Below the pieces are notes generated by a model that worked only from the letters and a program-made list of their open reading frames with translations, was not told where the DNA came from and made no database searches. Shown piece by piece: positions 30,414-59,416 of a DNA stretch of 64,000 nt; position 1 is the first letter of the stretch, and every line of letters starts with the position of its first letter. The position numbers and the translations under genes were made by a program. The stretch is taken from assembly GCA_016234735.1 (NCBI GenBank), contig JACRAN010000338.1, forward strand, positions 11,441-75,440, written 5' to 3'. The DNA comes from Bacteroidota bacterium (lineage in GTDB: Bacteria; Bacteroidota; Bacteroidia; Chitinophagales; Saprospiraceae).

Positions 30414-31736
30414 ATGAAAAAAAGATTCCTGACCATTGCCTGGGCGCTCCTGCTGGCCGTTGGCCTGCAAGCCCAGATGAACAAAATCAACTTCGTGGAA
30501 TACGACTTGCCGAACGGCCTGCACGTCATTCTGCACGAGGACCATTCCACGCCCATTGCGGTGGTTTCGGTTTTGTACCACGTCGGCTCGAAAAACGAGA
30601 AGCCCGACCGCACCGGGTTTGCCCATTTTTTTGAACACCTGCTATTTGAAGGTTCCGAAAACATTGCACGCGGCAAGTTCGACGACTACGTGCAGGAGGC
30701 GGGCGGTTTCAACAATGCCAACACCACCTATGACCGCACTTTTTACTACGAATTGCTACCATCCAACCAGATGGAACTGGGGCTTTGGCTGGAATCGGAG
30801 CGCATGTTGCAGGCCAAAGTGGAGGAAGTTGGCATCGAAACGCAGCGCCAGGTGGTGAAGGAGGAGCGTCGCCAGCGCATCGACAACCAGCCCTACGGCA
30901 CCGTTTTGGAGGAGTCAATGAAGCGGGCCTACCGCTCGCACCCGTACAAGTGGCCCGTGATCGGCTACATGGAACACTTGGACGCAGCGCAGGAACAGGA
31001 CTACAAGCAGTTCTACGCCGACTTTTACGTGCCCAACAATGCCACCCTCTCCATCGCCGGTGACATCAACCTCGAACAAGCTAAATCGTTGATTAGCAAG
31101 TATTTCGGCTCTATTCCGAAGAAAAAAGAACCCTACCGGCCTACAGTGAAAGAGCCAGAATTGGGCGGCGAGGTCAGGGACACCATCTTCGACAATGTGC
31201 AGCTTCCGGCGGTCATCCAAACCTACCGGATACCGGCGCAGGGCACCGAAGATTTTTATGCAGTGAGCATGTTGGCGCAGTTGCTGTCGCAAGGCGAAAG
31301 TTCCAGGCTCTACAAAGCACTGGTGGATGAGCAGCAGAAGGCGCTGTTCGTCGGCAACTTCCCACTGTCGATGGAAGACCCCGGGGTGTCGGTTGCGTTC
31401 GGCATCTGCAACGGCGGCGTTGACCCGAAAGACCTCGAAGCGGGCATGGATGCAGAAATCGAGCGGACGCAAAAGGAATTGATTTCCGAGGAGGAGTTTC
31501 AAAAGCTGCGGAACCAGGTGGAAAACGATTTCGTAAGTACCAACTCGACCGTGGCAGGCATTGCGGAGAGCCTCGCCAACTACCACACGTATTTTGGCTC
31601 CGCCAACCTCATCAACACCGAAATCGACCGCTACCTGAAGGTGACGAAGGAGGACATCCAACGGGTGGCCAAACATTATTTCAACAAAAACAACCGGGTG
31701 GTGCTGTACTACCTGCCGAAAACTGCCAATCCGTAG
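30414..31736 (+). CDS. M16 family (pitrilysin-like) zinc peptidase
   Basis: Signal peptide and the inverted zinc motif HFFEHLLFEG (HxxEH), with a downstream E in EERRQR. 440 aa. Confidence 0.88.
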   Translation: MKKRFLTIAWALLLAVGLQAQMNKINFVEYDLPNGLHVILHEDHSTPIAVVSVLYHVGSKNEKPDRTGFAHFFEHLLFEGSENIARGKFDDYVQEAGGFNNANTTYDRTFYYELLPSNQMELGLWLESERMLQAKVEEVGIETQRQVVKEERRQRIDNQPYGTVLEESMKRAYRSHPYKWPVIGYMEHLDAAQEQDYKQFYADFYVPNNATLSIAGDINLEQAKSLISKYFGSIPKKKEPYRPTVKEPELGGEVRDTIFDNVQLPAVIQTYRIPAQGTEDFYAVSMLAQLLSQGESSRLYKALVDEQQKALFVGNFPLSMEDPGVSVAFGICNGGVDPKDLEAGMDAEIERTQKELISEEEFQKLRNQVENDFVSTNSTVAGIAESLANYHTYFGSANLINTEIDRYLKVTKEDIQRVAKHYFNKNNRVVLYYLPKTANP

Positions 31737-39977: not shown

Positions 39978-40823
39978 CTAACGCTCGATAATCTGAATGG
40001 AAACGATTCGTTGCTCACTGTTTTGCGCCATCGACGGCTTGGCTTTCACTTCGATTTGCACTCGTCGTACCCCATGGTCAACGAGGTAGCGACGCACGGA
40101 GAGCGCACGGATTTCCGCCAACCGGACGGTCGAGGCCGCCTCCTCGTCAGGTGTCGAGTACCCGGTCAACAGCACTTTGTTTTCGGGGTTGTTGCGCAGC
40201 AATTTCCGCAGGCTGTCCAAGTAGGCAATGTTCTTTTTTTCGACTTTGAAATCCCCGTATTTATAGAAAAAAGTATGAGCGGGCGTTGGCTCTTCTGCCT
40301 CGACGGCATCTTGTTTTCCTTCATTAACTATTTGATTTTCAACAACTTGACTTGAATAAGAAAAATAGATGACCCCCACCAATTTACCATCGATTTTGAA
40401 AAAATTGCTGGCTTCCAAACTTTTCACCTGAATTTTTTCAGGGGGTGCCCCGCTGGTAGTGAGCATCGTTTTCACTGCTTCGGCCCTTGCAAGTCCGAGG
40501 TTGGGCCAAGGCGTTTCGTTGTATTCGTGCGGGCTGTAAATGCCGGTGATGGTCAGCATGACGCTGGCACTTTTTTGCAGGTTTCGGGCGACCGACTTGA
40601 TGGCAGGCAGGAGGTTTTCGGCGACGATGGGCGTGGCCCCTGAAAATTCAAAAGCAAAGGGATGCTGTACATCGTACCGCACACTGTCAATAAAAATACT
40701 GATGGGAGGAGGTTGGCCGGAGGCAGCGGCTGCCGTGTTTTTCCCTTCTGAAAAAATCCAGGTCCAACCTGACACCCAGAGGAAACAGGCTACCCCGGAC
40801 AAGTGTGGGAGTAGTTTGCTCAT
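39978..40823 (-). CDS. OmpA-like domain protein
   Basis: 281 aa. The C-terminal peptidoglycan-binding OmpA-like motif reads LLTGYSTPDEEAAS...LAEIRALSVRRYLVDHGV. Confidence 0.65.
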   Translation of the reverse strand: MSKLLPHLSGVACFLWVSGWTWIFSEGKNTAAAASGQPPPISIFIDSVRYDVQHPFAFEFSGATPIVAENLLPAIKSVARNLQKSASVMLTITGIYSPHEYNETPWPNLGLARAEAVKTMLTTSGAPPEKIQVKSLEASNFFKIDGKLVGVIYFSYSSQVVENQIVNEGKQDAVEAEEPTPAHTFFYKYGDFKVEKKNIAYLDSLRKLLRNNPENKVLLTGYSTPDEEAASTVRLAEIRALSVRRYLVDHGVRRVQIEVKAKPSMAQNSEQRIVSIQIIER

Positions 40824-45053: not shown

Positions 45054-47471
45054 TTGAAATTCAAAGAATCCTTCCGTCAGGCGAAGATTTTTGTTAAAAA
45101 ACACAAGGTCAAATTCATCATCGGCTTTGGTTTGCTGTTGGCAGCGTATTGGTTTTGCCTGCCCTCCCCGTTGTTCAAAGACCCGACTTGCATGGTGCTG
45201 GAAGCCAAAGACGGCAGCTTGCTGGGGGCAAGGATTGCCGCCGACGGGCAGTGGCGCTTCCCCTACGAAGCAGTGGTGCCGGAAAAATTTGGGAAAGCCA
45301 TCATTGAATTTGAAGACCGGCGCTTCTACTCCCATCCCGGTTTCGACCCGTTGGCTTTTGGCAGGGCGATGCGCCAAAACCTGAAAAGCCGCAGTGTGGT
45401 GAGCGGCGGCAGCACCCTCACCATGCAGGTCATCCGGTTGGCGAGGAAGGGAAAATCGAGGACTGTTTTTGAAAAAATCATCGAAATTATTTTAGCCACC
45501 CGGCTCGAAATCAGTTACTCGAAGCAGGAAATACTGGCGCTGTACGCCTCCAACGCACCCTTCGGCGGCAATGTGGTCGGGCTGGATGCCGCCTCTTGGC
45601 GCTACTTCGGCAAGGGAGCCGAAAATCTCTCATGGGGCGAAGCGGCTACCTTTGCCGTACTGCCAAACAGCCCCGCCCTCATCCACCCTGGGCGCAACCG
45701 CACCGCCCTGTTTGAAAAACGCAACCGATTGCTGAAGCGGCTTTTCGAGCAAGGCATCATTGACCAACCCACTTACGAACTGGCAGTGGAGGAAGTCCTG
45801 CCAGAAAAGCCGCATCCCTTGCCACGGTTGGCCCCGCACTTGCTGGAGCGGGCTTTCGCTGAAAATTTCAAGTCGAAAACGGGCGAAATCACGCGGTTGA
45901 GAACTACCCTCGACCCTTCGTTGCAAGCCCGGTTGAACGAGTTGGCGCTGCGAAAAAGCATCCAGTTGAAGGGCAATGAAATCAACAACCTCGCTATCCT
46001 CGTCCTCGATGTGGAAACCGGAAATGTGCTGGCCTACATCGCCAATGCCCCGAACACAGGAGCCGAACACGGCGAAGATGTGGACATCATCAAGGCTCCC
46101 CGCAGCACCGGCAGCATCATGAAGCCGCTGCTCTACGCCATGATGCTGAACGAAGGGAAAATCCTGCCGCAAAGCTTAATCTCCGACATCCCGACACAAA
46201 TCAACGGTTACAAACCGGAAAATTTCATGGAGACCTACGACGGCGTGGTGCCTGCCCACCTTGCCCTCTCACGGTCGCTGAATGTGCCGTTCATCAAGAT
46301 GCTGCAGGATTACAGCGTCGAAAAATTCCATTTCAACTTAAAAAAGCTCGGCCTGACCACTATTAACAAACCCCCATCGTACTACGGCTTGACTTTGACT
46401 TTGGGCGGAGCGGAAGGTTCGCTCTGGGAGTTGACCAATGCCTACACCTGCATGGCCCGGACGCTCGCCAATTTTTACGAACGCAATGGATACTACTCGC
46501 CATTGGATTTCAGACCTGCCACTTATTTTGTTAACGATAAAAACAGCGGGAAAGCACCGGAAAAGCAACTGACAAAGGAACCGAAAATGCTTTCCGCCGA
46601 TGCCATCTGGTTCACGCTGGAGGCGATGGAGGAATTAGAGCGCCCAACCACACAGGGCGAATGGGAGCGGTTTGAATCGAGCAGGCGGATTGCCTGGAAA
46701 ACAGGCACCAGCTTTGGTTTCCGCGATGCCTGGGCCATCGGCGTTTCAAAAAAATACGTGGTGGGCGTTTGGGCAGGCAATGCGGATGGCGAGGGGCGGC
46801 CCGGCCTGGTCGGCGTGTACGCCGCTGCCCCCATTTTGTTTGATGTGTTCAGCATGTTGCCCGCCTCCAGGTGGTTCGACCCACCCTACGATGCCATGAA
46901 AAAAATGGCTGTGTGTAAGTTGAGTGGCTATCCTGCGCTTGACTTTTGCGAAAAAGACACGCTGCAAGTCAACGAAAAGGGTATCAATGCGCCTTCCTGC
47001 CCCTTCCATAATATTGTCAATCTCGACAAAACCAGGCGCTGGCAGGTAAACAGCAGTTGCGAACCGCCGATGGCGATGGAGAAAGTTCCGTGGTTCGTGC
47101 TACCCCCCGTGGAAGAATTTTACTACAAAACCAAAAATCCGGGGTACACCCCGCTGCCGCCTTTTCGAAGCGATTGTGAAATTGCAGGGGAGAAGCAGGG
47201 AAGCACCATGCAGTTGATTTATCCAAAAAAAGCCTCGAAAATCTACGTGCCGGTCGAGTTGGACGGCACCGTCAGCCGGACTGTGTTCAAAGTAGCGCAC
47301 CGGAACCCAGAGTTGCTGGTTTATTGGCACATGGACAATGAGTTCATCGGAACGACCAAAACTTTTCACGAGATGGAGATGAATCCGGCGGCAGGGAAGC
47401 ACATCTTAACTTTGGTGGATGAAAAAGGAAACAGGCTGGTGCAGGAATTTGAAATAGTCGTTAAAAAGTAG
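45054..47471 (+). CDS. pbpC: penicillin-binding protein 1C
   Basis: 805 aa. Glycosyltransferase-51 motifs (EDRRFYSHPGFD, GGSTLTMQ), the transpeptidase STGSIMKP (SxxK), and a C-terminal PBP1C-specific domain. The start is TTG in the track. Confidence 0.88.
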   Translation: MKFKESFRQAKIFVKKHKVKFIIGFGLLLAAYWFCLPSPLFKDPTCMVLEAKDGSLLGARIAADGQWRFPYEAVVPEKFGKAIIEFEDRRFYSHPGFDPLAFGRAMRQNLKSRSVVSGGSTLTMQVIRLARKGKSRTVFEKIIEIILATRLEISYSKQEILALYASNAPFGGNVVGLDAASWRYFGKGAENLSWGEAATFAVLPNSPALIHPGRNRTALFEKRNRLLKRLFEQGIIDQPTYELAVEEVLPEKPHPLPRLAPHLLERAFAENFKSKTGEITRLRTTLDPSLQARLNELALRKSIQLKGNEINNLAILVLDVETGNVLAYIANAPNTGAEHGEDVDIIKAPRSTGSIMKPLLYAMMLNEGKILPQSLISDIPTQINGYKPENFMETYDGVVPAHLALSRSLNVPFIKMLQDYSVEKFHFNLKKLGLTTINKPPSYYGLTLTLGGAEGSLWELTNAYTCMARTLANFYERNGYYSPLDFRPATYFVNDKNSGKAPEKQLTKEPKMLSADAIWFTLEAMEELERPTTQGEWERFESSRRIAWKTGTSFGFRDAWAIGVSKKYVVGVWAGNADGEGRPGLVGVYAAAPILFDVFSMLPASRWFDPPYDAMKKMAVCKLSGYPALDFCEKDTLQVNEKGINAPSCPFHNIVNLDKTRRWQVNSSCEPPMAMEKVPWFVLPPVEEFYYKTKNPGYTPLPPFRSDCEIAGEKQGSTMQLIYPKKASKIYVPVELDGTVSRTVFKVAHRNPELLVYWHMDNEFIGTTKTFHEMEMNPAAGKHILTLVDEKGNRLVQEFEIVVKK

Positions 47472-47473
47472 GC

Positions 47474-47548
47474 AAAAAAAAACTCCTACATCAAGGGAGG
47501 CAAAAGGCTGATGTAGGAGCACTAAACATACTATGAGAAAACTACACA
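47474..47548 (-). ncRNA. candidate small RNA, paralog 1 (conserved 20-mer + terminator hairpin)
   Basis: Minus strand: a TACTTTG -7-like box, then AGTTTTCTCATAGTATGTTTAGTG. An 11-bp stem follows (CTCCTACATCA/TGATGTAGGAG) whose loop contains CCTCCC, and then 9 T. Confidence 0.45.
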
Positions 47549-47591
47549 GCGCAAAGTAGCGTAATTCTGAACCTACAAAAAAGCTGCTTTT

Positions 47592-47644
47592 AGGAAACGG
47601 TCGCTTTGGTAAGGAAACGGTCGGTATGGTTTAGTAAATGGTAA
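47592..47644 (-). promoter_or_regulatory. phased direct repeats (candidate LytTR operator) upstream of paralog 1
   Basis: AGGAAACGGTCG occurs perfectly twice (47592-47603 and 47612-47623), with a degenerate third copy AGTAAATGGTAA (47633-47644). Start-to-start spacing is 20 and 21 bp. Confidence 0.5.
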
Positions 47645-47934
47645 TTTCAAATATCGACAGGTAAGATTTTCGGGCAGCGGAATGGATAGAATTCAGACTT
47701 CGTTCATTTTCAAGACAGAAGAAATATTATTTTTTATAATTTTTAACCTTCCGGCACAGAATTGGAAAAGTGGATAATCGTCTTACAAACTGAAAAAAAC
47801 AGGCTCAGGTTTCCAGTTCTGCAAATCACAATTCTTCCTTTAAACTTCACACCGAAGTCCGTTTTCAGGACTTGCAAACAATTCAATTTGGTCATCAATT
47901 TTGGTTGAAGCCATCACATCATTCAGGCCCTGAG

Positions 47935-48004
47935 AAAAAAATTCCTACACCCCAGAAGGGAAACAAAGGTGTAGGAGAATTAAACATACTATGAGAAAAC
48001 TAGA
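47935..48004 (-). ncRNA. candidate small RNA, paralog 2
   Basis: Minus strand: an exact TATCTTTG (TAnnTTTG) box, then AGTTTTCTCATAGTATGTTTAAT. A 9-bp stem follows (TCCTACACC/GGTGTAGGA) whose loop contains TCCCTTC, and then 7 T. Confidence 0.45.
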
Positions 48005-48066
48005 ATCAAAGATAAGACCAACAGTTTTCGGATAAAAGCTATATTTACGCACTGGAAGTTTTTTTA

Positions 48067-48120
48067 AGAAAACGGTAGGGTTCTTTGAGGAAACGGTAGT
48101 TCTTTTTCGATAAACGGAAT
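48067..48120 (-). promoter_or_regulatory. phased direct repeats (candidate LytTR operator) upstream of paralog 2
   Basis: Three copies: AGAAAACGGTAG (48067-48078), AGGAAACGGTAG (48088-48099) and a degenerate GATAAACGGAAT (48109-48120). Start-to-start spacing is exactly 21 bp. Confidence 0.5.
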
Positions 48121-48230
48121 TAATAATCTTAATAATCCTATCCTAAGTCAAAGACAATTTTACTTTTGCAAGGCTGATTAAAGCACTAAATTACTTTTGG
48201 CAACTACACACACATTTTGACCGGCAGGGC

Positions 48231-48303
48231 AAAAAAAATTCCCGCACCCCAGGAGGGACTAAAGGTGCAGGAAGATTAAACAAACATACTATGAGAAAAC
48301 TGT
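48231..48303 (-). ncRNA. candidate small RNA, paralog 3 (also the terminator of the kinase operon)
   Basis: Minus strand: an exact TATATTTG box 4 nt before AGTTTTCTCATAGTATGTTTGTTTAAT. A 10-bp stem follows (TTCCTGCACC/GGTGCGGGAA on minus, with one G-U) whose loop contains CCCTCC, and then 8 T. It begins about 55 nt after the HK stop. Confidence 0.45.
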
Positions 48304-48366
48304 GGCAAATATATTTTATTATTTTTAAATGATAAAATATTTTCACAGAAAAGGTCTTGAATTTCA

Positions 48367-50280
48367 TCACTTTATCTGAATATCCATGATGGGTATCAAG
48401 ACTTCGACTTTCGTTCCAAGTGCCTTGCCGGTTATTTCATCTTCCAAGTCAATGATTTGCACCGCTGTCAATTCAAGATTCCTTGATTGCAACAAGATTT
48501 GAAGCCTGTCCTGGGTAATCCTTGTGCCCATCGACTTGTGATCCTTGAAACCCGGATTTTTTTCCTGAAGCTCCCTGGCTTTCTTGCGGCCAATCCCGTC
48601 ATCTTCGACAATGCACAGAATGGTATTTTCGTCGTGGAAGGTAAATTCTACTTTGATAAGGCCTTTTTTCTTTGAACGGATACCGTGTTCGATTGCATTC
48701 TCCACATAAGGTTGGATAATCATGGTTGGAACACCGTAGATGTCCTCCTCTATTTCCTCATCGATAATTATTTGATACTCAAGTTGGTCCTCAAACCGCA
48801 AATTCATGTTGATTTCGAGGTAATTCCGAAGGAATTCGATTTCTTTTTCCAATGAAATGACTTCCAATTCCGAATATTCCAGGCTTTGCCGCATGAGGTG
48901 GGCAAACTGTGCGAGATACTTAGCTGCCTGCGCAGTGTCGTTGGAAGTGATGCAATTTTGAACAGAGTTCAAGGCATTGAAAACAAAGTGCGGGTTCATC
49001 TGTGCCCGCAAAGCCTTGAGTTGGAGGCCCGCAGCCTGGAGTTTGAACATCTCGGCTTCTTTTTCCTTTCGTTCGGCCGTGAATTTTATTTCAAGTTCCC
49101 TTATTTCCGTATTTTTTTCTTCAAACAGAAAACGTTCAACCGCCTGATTGTACAAAATCTGGTAGTCGTAGGCATTTTTAAAGTCAAGTTCCTTGGCATA
49201 CAAATCGGCAATGTTCTTCAAAATCCCGGTGGCTTGGCGGTAATCTTGTCCCTTCTTGGCAAATTCCAGGGCTTTGAAGTAGTGTTTGAGCGCCTTTTTT
49301 GCTTTCTCTTCTTCAAATATCTTAGCCCGCCACCACTCGATGTTAGCGAGATTTTTATCCCTTTTCTCTTTAAACAACGGGTAGGCCGTTGAAAAAAGCT
49401 CCAAAGCTTCCTTGTACTGCCGTTTGTTCAGGTAACAATATCCCAGATTTGCGTAGGCAATTGCCCGTGCCTGCTGGTTTACATCATCCACTACTTTGAT
49501 GGCTTTTCTAAAATACAGGCCGGCGTTGTCAAAATCCTGTATCGTCATGTAGCCATTGCCCACATTGAGGTAATGCCAGGATAGACGGGACCGCATGCCA
49601 TTTTTTTCACAAAAATCGACTACGTTCAGGTAGGCCTGAATACTCCGCTGTGGTTCATTAAGCAATCCGTAAATGGTACCTAAACCACTTTGAATCAGGG
49701 TGAAAAAATGAAAATCTTTCAAGTCAGGTGTACCTGCCAAATTCTGTATTTCAACTTCACAATCAAGAAATGCCTTGAGTGCTTTGGGGTAGTTTGCAAA
49801 CTTCAGATGGAAAAAGCCTTCCCTGCATATCAATCGAACCCGGAGCCGGTCATCGGGGAATGATTCGAGGTATTTGGAAGCCTGATTCAGGTAAAATCGT
49901 GCCCTGTCGGTTTGGTCGAGATTCAGCAAAGTGCCAGCGTAGTCAATGTAGGTTTCGGCCAATTGGTTGACATCCCCCCGCTCACCGAGAATTTCGAGGG
50001 CTAAACGAAAATGGATTTCGGATAGGTTATAATTGTACAGTTGGTTTTCTACCAGTGCCGTGTTCAGGTGGTAATTGAGGCGGATGTCAGGATGGTCGTA
50101 CTCCGCAAAGATTTCAAGGATTTCGGCCAGGTATTTCTGGGCTTTGGTAATGTCTGAAAAAACTAATTGTGAGGAGAGTTTGTCCAGCGTAGTGAGCCTT
50201 TGAAGGCGTTCGTCAATGAGATGCAGGTTAGATTCCAATTTGATAAGATTCTCGTTGGTATCTGGATAGGTGTGTATCAT
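48367..50280 (-). CDS. TPR-repeat sensor histidine kinase, LytS/YehU-type, no TM segment
   Basis: 637 aa from the ATG at 50280. About 400 aa of TPR-like repeats (e.g. YANLGYCYLNKRQYKEALELF) precede a coiled coil. The His_kinase motif is MNPHFVFNALNSV, and the HATPase has QPYVENAIEHGI ... VEDDGIG. I see no hydrophobic TM stretch or signal peptide. Confidence 0.85.
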   Translation of the reverse strand: MIHTYPDTNENLIKLESNLHLIDERLQRLTTLDKLSSQLVFSDITKAQKYLAEILEIFAEYDHPDIRLNYHLNTALVENQLYNYNLSEIHFRLALEILGERGDVNQLAETYIDYAGTLLNLDQTDRARFYLNQASKYLESFPDDRLRVRLICREGFFHLKFANYPKALKAFLDCEVEIQNLAGTPDLKDFHFFTLIQSGLGTIYGLLNEPQRSIQAYLNVVDFCEKNGMRSRLSWHYLNVGNGYMTIQDFDNAGLYFRKAIKVVDDVNQQARAIAYANLGYCYLNKRQYKEALELFSTAYPLFKEKRDKNLANIEWWRAKIFEEEKAKKALKHYFKALEFAKKGQDYRQATGILKNIADLYAKELDFKNAYDYQILYNQAVERFLFEEKNTEIRELEIKFTAERKEKEAEMFKLQAAGLQLKALRAQMNPHFVFNALNSVQNCITSNDTAQAAKYLAQFAHLMRQSLEYSELEVISLEKEIEFLRNYLEINMNLRFEDQLEYQIIIDEEIEEDIYGVPTMIIQPYVENAIEHGIRSKKKGLIKVEFTFHDENTILCIVEDDGIGRKKARELQEKNPGFKDHKSMGTRITQDRLQILLQSRNLELTAVQIIDLEDEITGKALGTKVEVLIPIMDIQIK

Positions 50281-50417
50281 TAGGTGCAGTGTTTCAAATT
50301 TGAATGAGAAATCCAGAATGTTCGAATAAAAACACCTTGGCATTAAACATAAAAGAGGCAACACACACGTTGGTGCAGCCTCTTCCGAACAAACCTGACA
50401 AACTTACTTCCCGGAAA

Positions 50418-50594
50418 TTATTGTGGCAACTCACCTTGGCAGGGAGCCGGACTGAAAAGCCCGGAAAAAAAGCCTTTTTTCCTAATTTCGCTGGCATTTT
50501 CATTGCCTCCCAGGAATTCGCCCATCTCAAATTTTTTCAATTGATTTAGGTCGTCGAGTTCACCGAGGTTCTTTTTTTTGGTAGTCCTCCCCAT
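50418..50594 (-). CDS. small precursor peptide with double-glycine (GG) leader
   Basis: MGRTTKKKNLGELDDLNQLKKFEMGEFLGG then NENASEIRKKGFFSGLFSPAPCQGELPQ. The leader has hydrophobic residues at -4, -7, -12 and -15, E at -8, and GG at -2/-1. An alternative in-frame ATG at 50630 would add 12 aa. The gene sits between the RR and HK genes. Confidence 0.6.
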   Translation of the reverse strand: MGRTTKKKNLGELDDLNQLKKFEMGEFLGGNENASEIRKKGFFSGLFSPAPCQGELPQ

Positions 50595-50844
50595 AGCATC
50601 TAAGTTTTGAGTGAAAAATCTGAAGTTCATAGTGTTCTCGTTTATTCTGACGAGTTAAAAGTATGTGCGTTCTCCGGTTCCAAAGATAGGGACTTTTCAG
50701 AGTATCCAAAGTCTCCCGACAAAAATTGTCTGTGTAGCCAAAGCCGGGCTGGATGTAGTTCGCCTCTCAAAAAATCCTACTTGGTTGCGGGTTGCCTCCC
50801 ACCAACACTTTTACTCTATCGGTTAAAAAATGTGTAAGTTACAT

Positions 50845-51654
50845 TTAAAGTGCCTCTTCCAACCTCCTCATTTGCTCCATGAAAGCCGGACGCCTCCTGC
50901 GCGAAACTTCGATTTTTTTGCCATCGTCCATCACAAGGTAGCCTCCATCACCTTTGATAAACTTCCGAATATAATTCAAATTGATCACGTGACGCTTGTG
51001 GACCCTGTAAAAATTCAAGACTTGTAGCATGTCCTCGTAGGCTTTGATGGTCTTGGATGCGGTAATCCGGTCACCGTTCGTCAGAAAAATATGGGTGTAA
51101 TTATCCTCGGCTTCAAACCGGACAATGTCTTTGATACTCACAAAGTAGATCCCATCCACTGCCGAAATACTCATTTTTTCAAAGGAATTCGGGTTGCTGA
51201 GTGCCTTGTTGAACAACTCTAGCCGCTCCTCAATCTTCTCGGAACGGTGCGCACGAATCCGGCTCACTGCCTGAACCAACTCATCGGGGTTGATGGGTTT
51301 CATGATGTAGCCGATGGAACTGTACTGGCAGGCTCGGATGGCGAATTCATTAAACGCAGTAATGAAAATGACCTCGAAATCAATGGGTTTCAATTCGTCA
51401 AGCATCTGGAAAATCAGACCATCGGGCAGGTTGATGTCAAGGAAGGCGACATCCGGCTTGAAATCAGGCTCCTCAAATAGTTCTAGCGCTTCCTCAATGT
51501 TCAGGGCATCGGCTACGACCTGAACCTCCGGGCAGTGATTGGCCAGGAGGTTTTTGAGGTTGTTCATGCTTTTGATTTCGTCTTCGACGATTAGCGCTTT
51601 GATCACGGGTATCGATTTACTGAGTTCCAAGGGCTGTGTTGGCATTTTTATCAT
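50845..51654 (-). CDS. LytTR-family response regulator
   Basis: 269 aa. The receiver domain has ALIVEDE and FLDINLPDG. The C-terminal LytTR DNA-binding domain has IVRFEAEDNYTHIF and FYRVHKRHVINLNYI. Confidence 0.9.
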   Translation of the reverse strand: MIKMPTQPLELSKSIPVIKALIVEDEIKSMNNLKNLLANHCPEVQVVADALNIEEALELFEEPDFKPDVAFLDINLPDGLIFQMLDELKPIDFEVIFITAFNEFAIRACQYSSIGYIMKPINPDELVQAVSRIRAHRSEKIEERLELFNKALSNPNSFEKMSISAVDGIYFVSIKDIVRFEAEDNYTHIFLTNGDRITASKTIKAYEDMLQVLNFYRVHKRHVINLNYIRKFIKGDGGYLVMDDGKKIEVSRRRRPAFMEQMRRLEEAL

Positions 51655-51857
51655 CTGCGTGTAAGTGTTTGATGGTCACAAAAATACATTTCCCCGTTTA
51701 GAATATAAAACCGAATGACTATAAAATTTTCCTGCAAATCATGGTTTTACACTTTATCAAAAATAACGTTTCCAAAGAGGCTGTGGCTAACCCATTACGG
51801 AATGTTTTTTTACTAATAAAAATGAAAAAAATTAACACCGCCCGATAATTCAGCACT

Positions 51858-52658
51858 TTACTTTGGTATTGCAATGCGTAATGCCTCATCAAAACTGACT
51901 TTTGGAAACACTTCCAGCTTCCCGCCCGCCGTCGCATCGAGTATTTGACGGCCATCTTTCTGGTAAAAATAGTTGGCTAAGTGGTACGACACCTCCGAAC
52001 CGTACACGTCCGCCAATTGCCACTGCTGCCCCTTGAAGTAGTCTGGGTGAAAGTGGTTTTCGTCATCGCCTTTGTAGGTCTGCACCTCGTGCGATTGCCC
52101 GGCCTGCTTGAAACTGTGGTCAACCCCAATTAAAAACACCCGCCGGAAGCCCATGTAGAAGGCAATTTGCAGGGAAACGAAAGTGACCGTGTTGCCTTCG
52201 CAAATGGGCTGGGCGATGTCCTCGTAAAAGCTCCAGAGGTTCAGCGTGTGCAGCCGGTGAATGTGGGGAGCCTCGGCGACGACACCTTTGGCTGCGGTGT
52301 ACGACAGAAAAACCGGGCACTTCATCGCCTCAAACTCCCTGGCGCTCTGCTCGATGACCAACTGGTTAACCGACACGAGGTAGCTGAGGTGGAGGTCAAC
52401 TTTTTCAAAAATCAAAAATATCTTGTTCTGGCCGAAGGTGTGGTAATTACGAAGTGGAGCCAGGTCCATGTTTTTCAAGGAGGGGCCGTTCCCGATGATG
52501 AAACAATCTTCACCTTTGTGTTTGTCCTTGAATTGGAGCAGGCGTTTGGCGTACTTCCTGCGCCAGGTAAGGTAGTCCCTGGCCTCTTCCCATTTTTTGC
52601 CGAAGCCGTTTTTTTCCAGCAAATTCAGTCCAAAAAGTGCGCCTTGTGGTCTTGCCAT
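51858..52658 (-). CDS. DUF115 / MptE-like (sialyltransferase-like) protein
   Basis: 266 aa. The CFIIGNGPSLKNMDL motif is characteristic of the DUF115/GT42-like fold, with a later LIGVDH segment. Confidence 0.65.
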   Translation of the reverse strand: MARPQGALFGLNLLEKNGFGKKWEEARDYLTWRRKYAKRLLQFKDKHKGEDCFIIGNGPSLKNMDLAPLRNYHTFGQNKIFLIFEKVDLHLSYLVSVNQLVIEQSAREFEAMKCPVFLSYTAAKGVVAEAPHIHRLHTLNLWSFYEDIAQPICEGNTVTFVSLQIAFYMGFRRVFLIGVDHSFKQAGQSHEVQTYKGDDENHFHPDYFKGQQWQLADVYGSEVSYHLANYFYQKDGRQILDATAGGKLEVFPKVSFDEALRIAIPK

Positions 52659-56164: not shown

Positions 56165-59100
56165 ATGATGAGGACTGCGCTGATAGCCCTGTTTTTACTG
56201 ACAATATCCCACCTGCTGCCCGGCCAGGACAAGGAACTGGCCCTGGCCAAACATTACGACGCTGTCGCCGACAGCCTCAGCAAAATCCCCGACCACACCA
56301 AAGCGATTCTTTTCCGCAAAAAAGCCCTCAATATTTACCAGAACCAGCGGCCCGTGCCGTTTGAAAAAATCGCCGCCGAGTTTCGGAGCATCGGCATCTA
56401 CTATCGCCGGGAAGGCAAATTTGCCGAGTGCGAATACTACCTGAGACGGGCTGTCGAGGTGGCCGAAGCCCGCCTCGGCCCATCGCACCCCGAACTGGCC
56501 AAAGCCTACAACAGCTACGGTATTTACCTCCTGACGAAAGGCGAAAACAAACAGGCACTCGCTTTTTTGAAAAAAAGCCTGGCCATCAATCAAAAACTGA
56601 AGTCGCCCGAAGTGGCCGACAACCTGAACAACATCGGCATCATCCACGAAAACCTCGGCGACTACGGGCAGGCGTTCGAGCATTACCGGCAGGCCCTGCG
56701 CTACAACCGGGCGAAAAACGGAACCTTCCACATCAACACCGCCAACAACTTCCTCAACCTCGGCACGTCGAGCCTGAAACTCGACCGCTACGACGAGGCA
56801 TTCGCTTTTTTTGATACCACGCTGCGGATTTACGACAGCATCCTGTCGCCCAATCACCCTGAATTTGCAGGGCTTTACAACAATCTGGGGGCCGTTTCCA
56901 ATGTACGGGGCGACTACCGCACGGCCATCGATTTTTTTGAAAAAGCGCTGCGCTGCACCGAGTTCAATCTCGGCGAAAACCACCCCGACGTGGCCAACGT
57001 GTACGCCAACACAGGCATCCTGCTGCTCAACCGGGGCGACCAGAACAAAGCACTGGCATTTTTCAGGAAGGCGTACAACATCCGGGTGAAGTTTTTCGGG
57101 CTGAACAACCACCTCGTGGCCCGCACCTGCAACTACCTCGGCGACTGCTACCTCCAGAAAAACGATTTCGACCAGGCGTACGACTGGTTCGGGGAGGCAC
57201 TGCGCATTTTTCAACGCCTGCCAGCCGGAGACCCTGCCGACCTGGCCGAATACAAAAACGACCTCGGTTATTATTTTGAAAAACTCGGCAACTACGGCGA
57301 GGCAGCCCGCCTGTACAACGAAGCGCTGAACGTGGTGCGCAAAAGCCCTGAAAAACAGGGCCTCGACATCGCCAACTCGCTCGCCCGGATTGGGAACGTC
57401 TATTTTTCGCAGGAAAACTTCGGGGAGGCCAACCGCCACTTCCAGCAGGCGCTCGCCATTTCCCGAAAATTACTGGGTTGGAGGCACCCCGACGTGGCCT
57501 CGATTTATTCGAAAATCGCCCTGGCCTGCGCCACCGACCGGGACTGTGCGCTCACCTATTGCGATTCGGCGATGGCCGCCGTGAATTTTACGAAGCGCGC
57601 CAATTTCGATTTTGAAAAAGTGACCTCGCCCATTGTTTTGCTGGATGTTTTTGAGAAAAAAGGCCAGTTGCTGCAACATTTTTTCAAAGAAACCGGCGAC
57701 AAAAAATGGCTCCAAGAGGCCGACCAGGTTTATACTTTCGGCACACAACTGATTGATTTTGTGAAAATTACGTTGGAGGAGCCGGGGTCGAGGCAGGCGC
57801 TGCTGGCCAACTATTTCCTCATTTACGAAAATGGAATCTCGGTAAAATGCCAGCTCAGGGAGGCCACCGGCGAGTCCCGTTTTTGGCACGAGGCTTTTGA
57901 AATTTCGGAACGGAGCAACGCCACGCTGCTGCTCGAAGCGCTGCAATCCGTGCAGGCCGGGCAGTTCGCAGGCATACCGGACAGCCTGCTCGAACAGGAG
58001 CGAAAGCTGAAAATCGACCTCGCTTTTTTTGAAAAACAAGTTTTCGAGGAACAACTCAACGGCCTGAACGCTGACCAAGGAAAACTCACCGGGCTGAACG
58101 ATAAAATTTTTACGCTGCAACAAAAAAGCACCCGCCTGACGGAGGCACTTCGCAGGGATTTTCCCAAGTATTTCGAGCTGAAATATGTGCCGGAAGTGGT
58201 CGGTGTCGATGAAATCCAGCGCAAACTGCTGCGCCCGGGGCAGGGTATGTTGGCCTACTTCGTGGGGGAGGAAAACATTTTCGCCTTCGTCATTTCGGAG
58301 AAAAAATTCGAGGTGGTGACGATTCCGAAGGAGTTTCCGCTTGAAGCCTGGGTCGAGGAGTTCCGCAACAGCATCTACCGCTACAACCCGGCGAGCAAGG
58401 ATGTCGAATACCTGAGCCAGAAATACGCCAACCTCGGCCACGAACTTTACGAGTTGATTTTCGAGCCGGTGCGAACGAAACTGACTGGTAATGAGCTGAT
58501 TATCGTTCCCGGCGGGGTGCTGGGCTACCTCCCGTTCGATGCGCTGCTGGCCACCGAACCCGACGAGTACGGCAGCTTCGACACGCACGATTACCTCGTA
58601 CGCAAGTACCAGTTCAGTTACAGCTATTCCGCCACGCTGCTCAAGGAAATGTCGGAGCGGCGGACGAAGTGGCGGAAGGGCGGCTTCGTGGCGTTCGCCC
58701 CCTCCTACTCCGGCGACTCCCTCAGCCTTCGCAGCAATGACCCCTGGCGGGCCATGCTCGGCAAACTGAAATTCAACAAAACAGAAGCCCTTGCTATCCA
58801 GGGAGTTATGGGTGGGAAGGTGTTCCTCGATTCCGCCGCTACGGAGCAGCGGTTTATGGAAATAGCGCCCAGAGCGGGCATCCTGCACCTGGCACTCCAT
58901 GCCAAATCGAACGATGAGCATGGCGAGTACTCCTACCTCGCTTTTTACCAGACGCTCGACTCCATCGAAAATGAGTTGATTTTCGTGAAAGACCTCTACT
59001 CCATGCGTATCCGGGCGGCGCTGGTGGTGCTGAGTGCCTGCGAGACGGGCATCGGCGAACTGCAACGGGGCGAGGGCATCGTCAGCCTGGCGAGGGGATT

Positions 59101-59416
59101 TTCTTACGCCGGTGCCGCCAGCATCGTCACCACGCTGTGGAGCATCGACGACTACGCCTCCTCCGAAATCATGACGGATTTTTACCAAAACCTGAAAGCC
59201 GGAGCCACGAAAGATGCCGCCCTCCGGCAGGCAAAACTGGCTTTTTTGAAAAAAAGGAAAGGCAACAATGCCGCCCACCCGCTGTACTGGGCTGCCTTCA
59301 TCCCGGTCGGCGACATGGAGCCGTTGGGCAACGGCGGCCTGCCCTGGTGGGGTTGGGCAGGGTTGGCGCTCGCCGGTTTCAGTGCTGGCTGGTATTTTTT
59401 TTCAAGGAAAAAATAG
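56165..59416 (+). CDS. TPR-repeat CHAT-domain protease-like protein, exported and C-terminally anchored
   Basis: 1083 aa. The N-terminal signal peptide (MMRTALIALFLLTISHLLPG) is followed by about 10 TPRs. The C-terminal CHAT domain has His (LHLALHAKS) and Cys (VVLSACETG). A terminal TM helix precedes RKK. Confidence 0.85.
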   Translation: MMRTALIALFLLTISHLLPGQDKELALAKHYDAVADSLSKIPDHTKAILFRKKALNIYQNQRPVPFEKIAAEFRSIGIYYRREGKFAECEYYLRRAVEVAEARLGPSHPELAKAYNSYGIYLLTKGENKQALAFLKKSLAINQKLKSPEVADNLNNIGIIHENLGDYGQAFEHYRQALRYNRAKNGTFHINTANNFLNLGTSSLKLDRYDEAFAFFDTTLRIYDSILSPNHPEFAGLYNNLGAVSNVRGDYRTAIDFFEKALRCTEFNLGENHPDVANVYANTGILLLNRGDQNKALAFFRKAYNIRVKFFGLNNHLVARTCNYLGDCYLQKNDFDQAYDWFGEALRIFQRLPAGDPADLAEYKNDLGYYFEKLGNYGEAARLYNEALNVVRKSPEKQGLDIANSLARIGNVYFSQENFGEANRHFQQALAISRKLLGWRHPDVASIYSKIALACATDRDCALTYCDSAMAAVNFTKRANFDFEKVTSPIVLLDVFEKKGQLLQHFFKETGDKKWLQEADQVYTFGTQLIDFVKITLEEPGSRQALLANYFLIYENGISVKCQLREATGESRFWHEAFEISERSNATLLLEALQSVQAGQFAGIPDSLLEQERKLKIDLAFFEKQVFEEQLNGLNADQGKLTGLNDKIFTLQQKSTRLTEALRRDFPKYFELKYVPEVVGVDEIQRKLLRPGQGMLAYFVGEENIFAFVISEKKFEVVTIPKEFPLEAWVEEFRNSIYRYNPASKDVEYLSQKYANLGHELYELIFEPVRTKLTGNELIIVPGGVLGYLPFDALLATEPDEYGSFDTHDYLVRKYQFSYSYSATLLKEMSERRTKWRKGGFVAFAPSYSGDSLSLRSNDPWRAMLGKLKFNKTEALAIQGVMGGKVFLDSAATEQRFMEIAPRAGILHLALHAKSNDEHGEYSYLAFYQTLDSIENELIFVKDLYSMRIRAALVVLSACETGIGELQRGEGIVSLARGFSYAGAASIVTTLWSIDDYASSEIMTDFYQNLKAGATKDAALRQAKLAFLKKRKGNNAAHPLYWAAFIPVGDMEPLGNGGLPWWGWAGLALAGFSAGWYFFSRKK

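Follow-up and report, generated by a model that had tools for sequence, protein, structure and literature searches.

A conserved Saprospiraceae locus that resembles a peptide-signalling feedback circuit with a soluble TPR histidine kinase and sibling small RNAs

Staphylococcal Agr consists of the AgrD peptide, the AgrC kinase, the AgrA LytTR regulator, and RNAIII, a regulatory RNA that is its main output. AgrC, ComD, and BlpH, the receptors of Agr and of streptococcal ComCDE and BlpRH, are polytopic membrane proteins that detect an extracellular peptide. In Vibrio, the Qrr small RNAs are made from sigma-54- and LuxO-dependent promoters and need Hfq. The RRNPP receptors (Rap, NprR, PlcR, PrgX, Rgg, and AimR) act as one-component proteins whose output is DNA binding or phosphatase activity. 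Their known range is the Firmicutes and the mobile elements of that group (PMC10075063).

The window analysed here is a 64-kb stretch of DNA, in which an original prediction had described a peptide, TPR kinase, LytTR regulator, and small RNA circuit. As judged from its sequence, this locus looks like an undescribed peptide-signalling feedback circuit, and to our knowledge none is known in Bacteroidota. Rfam, NCBIfam, and the literature yielded no description of a system with these combined components, in agreement with what had been supposed.

Gene content and inheritance of the locus

Examination of the window revealed every predicted element at its expected position, and all are kept in related genomes. 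Read on the minus strand, the locus encodes a LytTR response regulator, a peptide with a double-glycine leader, a histidine kinase with TPR repeats, and three RNA modules of ~70 nt (Table 1). Pfam searches and comparison of related loci supported each of these four components as genuine, conserved, and syntenic.

Table 1. Features of the locus, listed in the direction of transcription
Feature	Position	Strand	Basis or remark
Response regulator, receiver and LytTR DNA-binding domain, 269 aa	50845..51654	(-)	Pfam
-7 promoter box TATCTTTG, peptide gene, Bacteroidota-type	50681..50688	(-)	Read from sequence
Peptide precursor gene, 58 aa (ATG 50594) or 70 aa (in-frame ATG 50630)	50418..50630	(-)	Conserved ORF; 58-aa form, 50418-50594
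Predicted small RNA target site, 34-nt window, ...AGAUGCUAUGGGGAGGAC...	50582..50615	(-)	AUG of 58-aa form, 50594-50592
Terminator-like intrinsic hairpin GAAGAGGC...GCCUCUUUU, right after peptide ORF	50343..50385	(-)	Sequence
Soluble sensor histidine kinase, 637 aa	48367..50280	(-)	Pfam TPR and His_kinase PF06580 (E 7.8e-23)
-7 promoter box TATATTTG, small RNA 1	48306..48313	(-)	Sequence
Small RNA 1, subtype A	48231..48301	(-)	Covariance model match, 83 bits
Three direct repeats TCCGTTTAT, ACCGTTTCC, ACCGTTTTC, 21-bp period	48068..48118	(-)	Putative LytTR operator, small RNA 2
-7 promoter box TATCTTTG, small RNA 2	48007..48014	(-)	Sequence; conserved in subtype B copies
Small RNA 2, subtype B	47934..48001	(-)	Covariance model match, 88.9 bits
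Three direct repeats ACCATTTAC, ACCGTTTCC, ACCGTTTCC, spacing 21 and 20 bp	47593..47642	(-)	Putative LytTR operator, small RNA 3
Small RNA 3, subtype C	47475..47547	(-)	Covariance model match, 84.1 bits, at 47475-47543

The stretch from 47472 to 51857 is indeed AT-richer than its flanks, with a GC content of 42.1% against 52.9% in the remaining window (35.8% in the non-coding RNA stretch, 43.9% in the kinase gene, and 46.9% in the regulator gene). The GC content is low in every relative and follows that of the host from 0.35 to 0.54, so the locus was not recently acquired. Its order of regulator, peptide, kinase, RNAs, and convergent pbpC recurs across the Saprospiraceae, including the isolate genome of Phaeodactylibacter luteus, as kinase identity declines from 84% to ~52%, and pbpC and the MptE-like/SDR genes remain syntenic with the locus throughout the family. 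On these comparisons the locus is vertically inherited and not an acquired island, the term island having to be dropped, and it is a conserved regulatory module of the Saprospiraceae (order Saprospirales, Bacteroidota). Nor, contrary to the original prediction, is it self-contained, since no exporter with a C39 protease domain was found in the 64-kb window or in the flanks retrieved.

The small RNA family and its putative operators

The first 20 nt at the 5' end are identical in all three modules, and a hairpin and then a T-run follow. In small RNA 1 these 20 nt are unpaired and the hairpin has a folding energy of -18.9 kcal/mol; the fold z-scores of small RNAs 2 and 3 are -3.5 and -4.0. The hairpin keeps 97.8% pairing across 103 distinct homologues, with changes on both sides in seven of its nine pairs. 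TAnnTTTG-type -7 boxes lie 4-8 nt before the conserved first A of the RNAs, and among subtype A copies TAnATTTG is conserved at an unchanged distance. All subtype C copies have GTGT before the conserved A, and the 5' end of small RNA 3 may take in this conserved GUGU before AGUUUUC. The ORFs within the modules are of inconsistent length (3, 22, and 12 codons). With their promoter boxes, free 5' segment, hairpin and U-run, and covariation, the modules look like transcribed small RNAs, of a family that had no match in Rfam.

The regulator gene, found 5' of the peptide gene at every orthologous locus, encodes a protein matching the Pfam models Response_reg (E 2.7e-15) and LytTR (E 2.1e-19); its best NCBIfam matches, BtsR and LytR, were each below their cut-offs. 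Direct repeats of ACCGTTYCC, 20-21 bp apart, precede two of the modules, as had been noticed before. These were the only strong paired repeat sites in the 64 kb, both at RNA promoters, compared with an average of 0.4 in shuffled sequence. The putative operator geometry (9 bp, a 12-bp spacer, and 9 bp, ~10 bp upstream of the promoter) is the same as that of known LytTR operators (PMC6193735). The three-repeat pattern of small RNA 2 also precedes subtype B copies at other loci, and that of small RNA 3, whose proximal repeat stops 10 nt short of a T-rich -33 element, is conserved in front of subtype C copies. Small RNA 1 has a single weak repeat-like site upstream, ACCTTTTCT, and repeat pairs stand there in more distant relatives. 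Altogether, a repeat pair was present at 84 of 190 distinct RNA copies versus 19 of 950 random windows.

A scan of the 64-kb window found no repeat pairs upstream of the peptide, regulator, or kinase genes, and the transcriptional autoinduction typical of Agr, ComCDE, and BlpRH is therefore absent. The RNA family is also dispersed: 38 metagenome contigs (including 3 chance matches) extend 2.5 kb or more beyond the RNA on its upstream side and have no kinase there, and about half of the RNA loci resolvable for linkage were unlinked to the kinase, so that another of the many LytTR regulators could drive them. Such unlinked copies still bear the same repeats.

Instead of RNAs acting in trans, the modules might be DNA repeats, or might serve as terminators or insulators that separate the kinase gene from pbpC, their complementarity to the peptide start being a relic of duplication. 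They do lie between convergent genes, the terminator hairpin of small RNA 3 adjoins the pbpC stop codon (47471), and an RNA adjoins pbpC in 30 of 120 contigs. However, every module has promoter-like boxes of its own, most have the regulator repeats, and copies also occur in unrelated contexts, such as prs-RNA-rhodanese. The most conserved part of the 103 distinct copies is, moreover, the 5' 17 nt outside the hairpin, with an almost invariant 5' end (AGUUUUCUCAUAGUAUG), which a terminator would not need, and each of the three subtypes retains its identity across genera, that of small RNA 1 in loci of 53-81% kinase identity. We regard the DNA element reading as very improbable.

The peptide, its predicted pairing with the RNAs, and the kinase

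The peptide ORF was conserved in 13 of the 13 orthologous loci first examined, and homologues were found in Phaeodactylibacter and Haliscomenobacter. Its leader, which closes with GG, covers the first 30 residues of the 58-aa form and is followed by the core NENASEIRKKGFFSGLFSPAPCQGELPQ. All 28 distinct peptide sequences have GG at -1/-2 of the predicted cleavage site and hydrophobic residues at -4 and -12, accompanied by a hydrophobic residue at -15 (27/28), M or L at -7 (25/28), and D or E at -8 (21/28). Positions -1, -2, -4, -7, -8, and -12 agree with the transporter-protease recognition consensus (PMC6363468), and the peptide is a predicted export substrate with a canonical double-glycine leader. 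The C-terminal tail has the consensus C-x-G-x-[LVIM]-P-Q, with C at -7 in 26, G at -5 in 25, P at -2 in 27, and Q or H at -1 in all of the 28. The -7 box of the gene has TTTG ~18 nt on its 5' side, is also kept in the closest relatives, and has no LytTR repeat pair. In most of the loci compared, a hairpin and T-run lie 3' of the peptide stop codon, with stems that differ while their complementarity is kept.

The strongest clue to the wiring, and one that the original prediction lacked, is the antisense match of the RNAs' 5' end to the peptide start codon. Evaluated with RNAduplex, the 20-nt seed and the peptide start site gave -16.9 kcal/mol; when both strands of the 64 kb were scanned (127,932 windows; background mean -5.3, sd 2.3), no other non-self site scored better. 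Of 27 distinct peptide genes, 24 have an equivalent site with a score of -14.7 to -21.3, and the start-codon site was the best or near-best non-self site in 12 of 13 scanned loci. The codons following the AUG vary (GGG AGG, GAG AAA, AAG GAG, or GGA AAA) and are all purine-rich, pairing with the U-rich seed. Because the seed never varies, it provides no compensatory changes by which to probe the pairing, and conservation of the target site could partly reflect Met-Gly-Lys coding. In the window's clade there is an in-frame upstream ATG, and third-position changes are synonymous across relatives, which suggests that translation may start 36 nt before the pairing site; simple start-codon occlusion would then be weakened in this clade.

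Alternatively, the peptide might be an output and not a signal: a bacteriocin-like or other product that acts outside the cell after secretion and that the system restrains via the small RNAs. The TPR kinase would then sense something else in the cytoplasm, for example a partner protein, a metabolite, or a relay for envelope stress. The leader belongs to the bacteriocin/PCAT type, a homologue is annotated in one source as 'bacteriocin-like protein', and the mature core is unusually conserved across genera (NWNNGCGGIVPQ), whereas pheromones diverge fast. At the sequence level the only wiring runs from RNA to peptide and not from peptide to kinase, and the kinase can be unlinked from the regulator-peptide pair, as on a Haliscomenobacter-like contig where kinase and RNA were absent within 6 kb. 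An output role is nonetheless unlikely in our estimation, as no immunity gene, modification enzyme, or transporter lies beside the peptide gene in any locus compared, and the gene adjoins that of the regulator, and usually that of the kinase too, over a large evolutionary distance. The conserved C-terminal tail beside a TPR protein also fits a ligand-receptor pair, for which this arrangement is typical.

The kinase is composed of ~9 TPR repeats (residues 8-363), a long connecting helix (367-427), a His_kinase dimerisation/H-box domain, and an ATPase domain, and H431, N528, and the G-boxes are invariant across 60 orthologues. Its 19-residue Kyte-Doolittle hydropathy peaks at 1.01, so it has no transmembrane segment, as predicted; a hydrophobic segment is likewise absent in 119 of 120 orthologues, and by this measure the kinase is cytoplasmic. 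An AlphaFold2 model (mean pLDDT 83) was compared by Foldseek, which matched the kinase part to GanS and the TPR superhelix most closely to the peptide-groove binders LGN/Pins, Rap, and NprR. Since eukaryotic LGN/Pins was the best match, and RRNPP receptors matched no better than generic TPR proteins (target-normalised TM-score 0.50-0.61 for Rap and NprR), the likeness to RRNPP is only that of a generic TPR superhelix.

With a cytoplasmic kinase and no exporter nearby, the peptide might also act without export as an intracellular small-protein modulator of the kinase, its GG being a conserved binding element and the RNAs limiting its cytoplasmic level. Feedback on translation would tune that concentration directly, and the NCBIfam models of GG-leader peptides failed to match. 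On the other hand, the fit of six leader positions to the transporter-protease consensus in nearly all 28 sequences is hard to account for without cleavage and export, and the leader stays constant beside cores of 15 to 29 aa, as in exported peptides. This we consider improbable, more so than an output role.

Proposed circuit and its relation to known systems

The best reading, in which we have moderate confidence, is that regulator-driven sibling small RNAs block translation of the peptide, which in turn is probably what the cytoplasmic kinase binds as its ligand. The soluble TPR kinase would phosphorylate the neighboring LytTR regulator, which would bind the 9-bp repeats at 21-bp spacing just 5' of Bacteroidota-type promoters and activate sibling RNAs of ~65-72 nt, three here and more elsewhere in related genomes. 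Each RNA would consist of a single-stranded, near-invariant 5' end and an intrinsic terminator, and the 5' end would pair over the start codon of the separately transcribed peptide gene, blocking translation. Given the strong conservation of this end, the RNAs probably act on further mRNAs too. The peptide would most likely occupy the TPR groove of the kinase, whether exported, cleaved, and re-imported or as the cytoplasmic precursor, and the circuit may serve quorum sensing. Should the peptide activate the kinase, the result would be negative feedback of a homeostatic kind; should it instead turn the kinase off, the way Vibrio autoinducers act in the LuxO/Qrr pathway, a double-negative, autoinducing switch would result.

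Membrane-bound TPR or Y_Y_Y kinases paired with LytTR regulators are common in Bacteroidota and have the same PF06580 core and regulator family, and many of these paralogues likewise have TPR sensor domains. They differ in having a hydrophobic transmembrane segment ~50 aa before the H-box in 70 of 74, and often an N-terminal one too, which places their sensor domain outside the cytoplasm; unlike here, the RNA model had no match in 858 kb around them. With RRNPP systems the locus shares a cytoplasmic TPR-type receptor gene beside a small propeptide gene, but the receptor here is a kinase, and the peptide has a GG leader where RRNPP propeptides have Sec or PptAB-type signals.

As in Agr, ComCDE, and BlpRH, the gene for a small precursor peptide has those of a histidine kinase and a LytTR regulator next to it, and the direct repeats of the putative operators are 9 bp with a 12-bp spacer; the double-glycine leader is shared with ComC and BlpC, and the proposed output through regulatory RNA with Agr. 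Unlike AgrC, ComD, and BlpH, the kinase has no membrane domain, and it joins a LytS/His_kinase-type core to an N-terminal TPR array. The locus further differs from these systems in lacking AgrB and an adjacent ComAB-type exporter, in having as proposed output several short sibling RNAs predicted to pair with the peptide mRNA, and in its Gram-negative Bacteroidota host.

The circuit as proposed resembles Vibrio LuxO/Qrr in having several near-identical small RNAs with a common conserved pairing region and terminator hairpins, which stand below a phosphorelay linked to cell-cell signalling, feed back on components of their own pathway, and differ in gene copy number between species. The RNAs themselves have no similarity to Qrr in sequence or structure; here they would be driven by a LytTR regulator at Bacteroidota-type promoters, and their predicted target is the start codon of the signal precursor.

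Composition, gene order and inheritance of the locus

A sliding GC profile of the window dipped to 0.33-0.47 at approximately 47400-51900, compared to 0.52-0.60 in the flanks, and the interval 47472-51857 had 42.1% GC versus 52.9% for the remainder of the window, in agreement with the AT-rich composition claimed in the original prediction. The ORF list and Pfam searches revealed three coding features within the locus, all on the minus strand, and every element that had been named from the sequence was found in its place. Family assignments were obtained for the regulator (Response_reg and LytTR) and for the kinase (TPR and His_kinase), but the peptide encoded by the small ORF was without a family match. 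The best NCBIfam matches of the regulator were BtsR and LytR, both under the equivalog cut-offs. A GTG at 50364 was rejected as the kinase start, being an artefact of ORF extension; all orthologues begin at the position of the downstream ATG.

Features of the locus and other window genes discussed in the text
Feature	Position	Strand	Product or length	Remarks
LytTR regulator	50845-51654	-	269 aa	Response_reg E 2.7e-15, LytTR E 2.1e-19
Peptide precursor (small ORF)	50418-50630	-	58 aa from ATG 50594; 70 aa from in-frame ATG 50630	conserved in every orthologous locus
TPR-His_kinase	48367-50280	-	637 aa	start ATG 50280; Pfam TPR, PF06580, weak HATPase_c
Small RNA 1 (subtype A)	48231-48301	-
Small RNA 2 (subtype B)	47934-48001	-
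Small RNA 3 (subtype C)	47475-47547	-
pbpC	stop at 47471			convergent neighbor
TPR + CHAT protein	56165-59416	+	1,083 aa	CHAT, caspase-like protease
M16 (insulinase-type) peptidase	30414-31736	+
M16 (insulinase-type) peptidase	31789-33861	+
OmpA-family protein	39978-40823	-

A scan of one genome per species returned 80 loci, only 6 of which were truly orthologous, the other 74 being paralogues. Additional contexts were drawn from exact-protein look-ups, including contigs of 6.2 and 8.9 Mb, and from a metagenome pattern scan. Nearly all orthologous loci had the regulator first, then the small ORF, the kinase, between one and three RNA units and a convergent pbpC, and in the closer relatives the other side of the locus carried the same genes as the window, encoding an MptE-like protein, an SDR protein and a 2-hydroxyacid dehydrogenase. 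The small ORF, whose conservation had been a point of the original prediction, was found in every orthologous locus. A complete locus with two RNA copies is present in the isolate Phaeodactylibacter luteus. On one Haliscomenobacter-like contig (L211, 5016-6150) the regulator adjoins the peptide gene, the next gene encodes a convergent T9SS-sorted protein, and neither a kinase nor an RNA copy lies within 6 kb of the pair; the module can therefore be split.

The locus was 2-8 points lower in GC than its flanks in every relative, and its GC, ranging from 0.35 to 0.54, followed that of the host. The deficit stems from AT-rich intergenic stretches and from Lys/Glu/Asn-rich proteins, and GC3 was lower as well. 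Because synteny is family-wide and the deficit occurs in every relative and tracks the host, the low GC belongs to an ancient locus passed on by vertical descent, and the same two observations rule out horizontal transfer as its source. The description of the region as an island thus holds for its composition and not for a recent acquisition.

Several individual loci showed further variation. In one contig (L085:9052-12446), an inserted CBM20/GH77 gene separates the RNAs from the kinase; the RNAs still adjoin pbpC. In a metagenome-assembled genome whose flanks have 62% GC, the peptide gene and the kinase match are set apart by approximately 870 nt of additional sequence (L005:5130-6001), and the first RNA copy, at 8092, is decayed (GTTTTCTCATGGCATGTGACC...), with subtypes B and C intact. 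A few kb from the window locus lies a gene for a TPR + CHAT protein, a type of gene that also flanks the locus in two other contigs (L087 and L088). Its product possibly acts in conflict or signaling, and it has no evident place in the circuit.

The TPR kinase and the peptide precursor

Full-length relatives of the kinase ranged from 84% down to approximately 52% identity and came from sources named Saprospiraceae, Phaeodactylibacter and Bacteroidota. The protein has a LytS/YehU-type H-box domain (PF06580, E 7.8e-23) followed by HATPase_c, for which the Pfam match is weak; its profile nonetheless matched the GanS kinase domain 6swj (E 1.6e-17), and the NPHF and N-box residues were invariant in the orthologues. 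The highest 19-residue Kyte-Doolittle score of the window protein was 1.01, and 119 of 120 orthologues scored below 1.6, so hydropathy revealed neither a 5TM-LytS domain nor any other membrane-embedded input in these proteins. Paralogous Bacteroidota kinases with the same core differ: 70 of 74 exceeded 1.6 in a hydrophobic segment that precedes the H-box by approximately 50 residues, frequently with another such segment at the N-terminus. The kinase is accordingly lacking in transmembrane segments, as had been proposed, and is predicted from its sequence to be cytoplasmic.

An AlphaFold2 model of the kinase made from 60 orthologues (mean pLDDT 83) folds residues 8-363 into a TPR superhelix of 18 helices, followed by a single 60-residue helix and then by the dimerization/H-box helices and the ATPase domain. 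Fold searches matched the kinase part to GanS and the TPR part first to LGN/Pins and then to the Rap proteins and NprR, and a sequence-profile search of the PDB agreed for both parts. The best of these TPR matches are proteins that grip extended peptides in a concave groove. Rap and NprR matched at E 4e-8 to 6e-7 with target-normalized TM-scores of 0.50-0.61, and LGN/Pins and designed consensus TPRs scored higher, so that in the model the TPR likeness looks generic and does not make the kinase an RRNPP member. What stands of the proposed RRNPP-like receptor is its cytoplasmic location and fold class, with a histidine kinase as the output.

Protein searches with the peptide recovered homologues in Phaeodactylibacter luteus, Phaeodactylibacter sp. 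and Haliscomenobacter, all annotated as hypothetical save one labeled bacteriocin-like. Among 28 distinct peptide sequences, the predicted double-glycine leader was borne out by glycines at -1 and -2 in all 28, together with hydrophobic residues at -4 and -12 (28/28 each) and at -15 (27/28), Met or Leu at -7 (25/28) and Asp or Glu at -8 (21/28). C39-peptidase ABC exporters recognize Leu-12, Glu-8, Leu-7, Val-4 and Gly-Gly (PMC6363468), and the leader as read from these alignments has this recognition pattern. The predicted core comprises 15-29 residues, is Lys-rich at its start and ends in a conserved tail, with Cys at -7 (26/28), Gly at -5 (25/28), Pro at -2 (27/28) and Gln or His at -1 (28/28). 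No known peptide family was matched; three representative peptides gave no hit at E <= 1 to any NCBIfam or Pfam family, curated models of GG-leader or bacteriocin precursors included. A C39-domain exporter was found neither in the genes called for the fetched loci nor in the scanned large ORFs of the window, which encode a T9SS-sorted protein, two M16 peptidases, DnaK, BshC and others. The two M16 peptidase genes are adjacent, and no evidence links them to the GG peptide.

The peptide gene carries a promoter box of the Bacteroidota type (TATCTTTG) and a terminator hairpin of its own, the stems of which vary between loci with complementarity retained. In the clade of the window an in-frame ATG lies 36 nt upstream of the shorter start, and since most differences among relatives in the codons between the two starts fall at third positions, the 70-aa form is probably made as well. 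This N-terminal extension is missing in the Phaeodactylibacter/Haliscomenobacter clade. In the window's clade, translation may instead begin at the upstream AUG. There, too, a motif GAAACACU(A/G)U occurs just before the kinase start codon (50295-50330, minus strand) and again just before the first AUG of the peptide (50630-50645, minus strand), and ATTCTGGATTTCTCAT preceding the kinase gene looks like the RNA 5' region in sense orientation. These stretches may serve as an additional, weak site of pairing or reflect an initiation context common to both genes.

The small RNAs, their promoter-like boxes and their predicted targets

The original prediction described three paralogous hairpin-terminated modules of approximately 70 nt, and such units were indeed seen 3' of the kinase. 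The 5' stretch (AGTTTTCTCATAGTATGTTT) is identical in all three, and each also has a GC-rich hairpin with a T-run. These hairpins were more stable than those of shuffled sequence (z -2.4 to -4.0), and the 5' stretch was unpaired in the folds. A TAnnTTTG-like box lies 4-8 nt before the conserved first A of each unit, with a T-rich element approximately 19 nt further upstream, which we take to be the Bacteroidota -7/-33 promoter type known from Bacteroides. Internal-AUG ORFs of 3, 22 and 12 codons are unconserved, and the units were rejected as tiny protein genes. The terminator hairpin of the third RNA starts only a few bases away from the stop codon of pbpC on the opposite strand (47471-47520). 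No U-run follows this hairpin on the pbpC strand, and therefore read-through from pbpC could yield RNA antisense to the small RNAs.

Subtypes A, B and C are distinct and kept their identity where the kinase was only 53-65% identical. A covariance model built on 26 RNA copies gave 131 matches across 66 sources, and none in 858 kb surrounding the paralogous membrane-bound TPR kinases of Flavobacterium and others. In the hairpin 97.8% of cells were paired and 7 of 9 pairs were altered on both sides, far above shuffled and slid controls alike. The loop is mostly C-rich (CCCUUC or CCUCC), with exceptions. The first 17 nt were near-invariant in 103 distinct sequences, a set that takes in copies found by the model alone, outside the exact-match scan; a few third and fourth copies deviate. 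This conservation of the 5' end, among the strictest known to us in bacterial small RNAs, is a sign that the regulon is broad. Rfam 15 gave no match for these RNAs or for copies of various subtypes from 8 further loci; the only hit, Pseudomon-1, was sub-threshold (24 bits versus a 50-bit cut-off) and driven by the terminator.

Repeats of ACCGTTYCC, spaced 20-21 bp from start to start, lie upstream of the second and third RNA copies, consistent with the direct repeats noted earlier at two of the modules. Arrays of two or three 9-mers with a 21-bp period (consensus approximately [TG]ACCGTTYCC) are kept upstream of subtypes B and C, and at small RNA 3 the proximal repeat stops 10 nt before the -33 element. 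LytTR operators consist of 9-bp direct repeats with a 12-bp spacer, approximately 10 bp upstream of the promoter (PMC6193735), a geometry shared by these putative operators. In the window, strong 9-mer pairs occurred at the promoters of small RNAs 2 and 3 only (0.4 in shuffles), two weak further pairs lay within coding sequence at 33764 and 8956, and the pair search found none before the regulator, peptide or kinase genes. Over all loci a pair fell within -140 to -25 of 84 of 190 distinct RNA copies, compared to 19 of 950 random windows. In the window's clade, subtype A is preceded by no more than a single weak site; repeat pairs do precede it in more distant loci. These genomes encode many other LytTR regulators.

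Scanning metagenome contigs for exact matches to the first 19 nt of the RNA identified at least 120 contigs. Among the matches listed, the kinase was directly upstream of the RNA in 31 contigs, and another 38 had at least 2.5 kb upstream of the RNA without a kinase, of which 3 were chance or coding matches. A further subtype, D (AGUUUUCUCAUAGUAUGUUUUGAUUUUCCUACUGC...GCAGUAGGAUUUUUUUU), lies between genes for ribose-phosphate pyrophosphokinase (PRPP synthetase) and a rhodanese in approximately 20 contigs among the matches listed (L100, L114, L125, L128, L170, L174, L207 and some 14 more metagenome contigs); repeats of the CCGCCGTTCC type precede it, and it has no linkage to the kinase. Relatives of the neighboring rhodanese are named Saprospiraceae or Lewinellaceae, and the subtype D copies therefore belong to the same order. 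A B+C pair was found beside a protein of approximately 1,680 aa in 11 contigs among the matches listed, and one contig has four tandem copies of differing subtypes within 900 nt (L103:1974-2850). Because most kinase-unlinked copies carry the same repeats and promoter boxes, the regulon of the regulator is likely to be a set of RNA genes at several loci. Among environmental Saprospiraceae and Lewinellaceae, sampled from wastewater, freshwater and marine settings, the RNA family is abundant.

These RNAs have a 5' end that runs antisense to the start codon of the peptide gene, a link absent from the original prediction. When the seed (the 5' 20 nt of the RNA) was scanned over both strands of the window in 1-nt steps, the best duplex beyond three trivial self-antisense hits was at 50615-50582, centered on the AUG at 50594, with -16.9 kcal/mol against a background of -5.3 +/- 2.3. 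The peptide start was the best or near-best non-self site in 12 of 13 loci scanned, and the duplex had -14.7 to -21.3 kcal/mol in 24 of 27 distinct peptide genes. The codons following the AUG vary by clade (GGG AGG, GGU AAG, GAG AAA, AAG GAG, CAG GAG or GGA AAA) and stay purine-rich, allowing pairing with UUUUCUC via A-U and G-U, and ACU or GCU always precedes the AUG. Since the AUG itself would be paired, repression of initiation is expected.

Other candidate sites were also considered. The upstream in-frame AUG gave only -5 to -11.5 kcal/mol and was rejected as a second pairing site. A gene for a secreted protein of 148 aa, which lies upstream in the Phaeodactylibacter clade, was rejected as a second conserved target, with pairing in just 2 of 3 loci. 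The start region of the OmpA-family gene at 40823 (CUGACUAUGAGCAAACUA) was the third-best non-self match (-15.1 kcal/mol) and is a possible second target, without comparative support.

Proposed circuit and relation to known systems

The best-supported reading is a chain in which the soluble TPR kinase would phosphorylate the LytTR regulator, which would bind the repeat arrays and activate the sibling RNAs, whose 5' ends would in turn block the peptide start codon and probably the start codons of other mRNAs. For the ligand of the TPR groove the obvious candidate is the peptide, on three grounds: the adjacency of its gene persists, the C-terminal tail is conserved, and the peptide class shifts with the kinase clade. 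The peptide would reach the groove by export and re-import or act as a precursor. If the peptide turns the kinase on, a homeostatic loop results; if it turns the kinase off, the loop becomes double-negative and autoinducing, like that of Vibrio autoinducers and the Qrr RNAs. Several observations may weigh against this scheme: no exporter gene turned up in the window or the fetched loci, translation of the peptide may begin at the upstream AUG in the window's clade, the regulator-peptide pair stands apart from kinase and RNA on one Haliscomenobacter-like contig, and many other LytTR regulators are encoded in these genomes.

The latter case would extend to true peptide quorum sensing in a Gram-negative Bacteroidota lineage, in which the exported and cleaved GG peptide re-enters the cell and is read by the kinase-fused, RRNPP-like TPR groove, the kinase switches off, the dispersed sibling RNAs fall silent, and translation of the peptide and other mRNAs is released. 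We consider this rather unlikely as a whole. It would entail post-transcriptional autoinduction of the peptide, and the release of many other mRNAs with ACUAUGRRRAAA-like start regions. The Gram-positive quorum-sensing logic that had been proposed for the locus is upheld in its parts, namely peptide, kinase, LytTR regulator and repeats, but the defining features of Agr and ComCDE fail.

Under the kinase-to-RNA chain, the locus offers a complete testable wiring diagram of signal candidate, sensor, regulator, operator, RNA outputs and predicted target. Its parts are present in the cultured species Phaeodactylibacter luteus and Haliscomenobacter, and since the P. luteus isolate has the whole locus, the scheme is directly testable. 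Members of the Saprospiraceae, filamentous and predatory, are key degraders in activated sludge and algal blooms, and density- or contact-dependent control in them is therefore of ecological interest. To our knowledge, very few regulatory small RNAs are understood outside gut Bacteroides. Full-text searches turned up no account of a system like this one or of its RNAs, in line with the original remark that its author was aware of none, and the literature searched held no characterized peptide-based cell-cell signaling circuit in Bacteroidota. The small-RNA family of the locus is new, and the architecture of its kinase had gone undescribed.

Like Agr/RNAIII and ComCDE, the locus has a peptide, a kinase, a LytTR regulator and direct repeats. 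Unlike Agr, it has no AgrB-type peptidase, thiolactone-forming AgrD or polytopic AgrC; its kinase is soluble, and the peptide Cys lies 7 residues from the C-terminus and is absent from 2 of 28 peptides. The membrane receptor and transcriptional autoinduction of Agr and ComCDE likewise appear to have no counterpart here. As with Qrr, sibling RNAs are predicted to feed back on their own pathway, but the sigma-54/LuxO-dependent promoters of that system are not those of this locus. The receptor resembles RRNPP proteins in its cytoplasmic location and fold class. RRNPP receptors are one-component proteins with HTH/DNA-binding or phosphatase output, their propeptides having a Sec-type signal, whereas here the output is a histidine kinase, the leader is of the GG type and the host lies outside Firmicutes. 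A large RRNPP survey was limited to Firmicutes (PMC10075063). Gram-positive peptide sensing has two known designs, membrane kinases and cytoplasmic TPR one-component receptors, and a soluble kinase with TPR input would bridge both.
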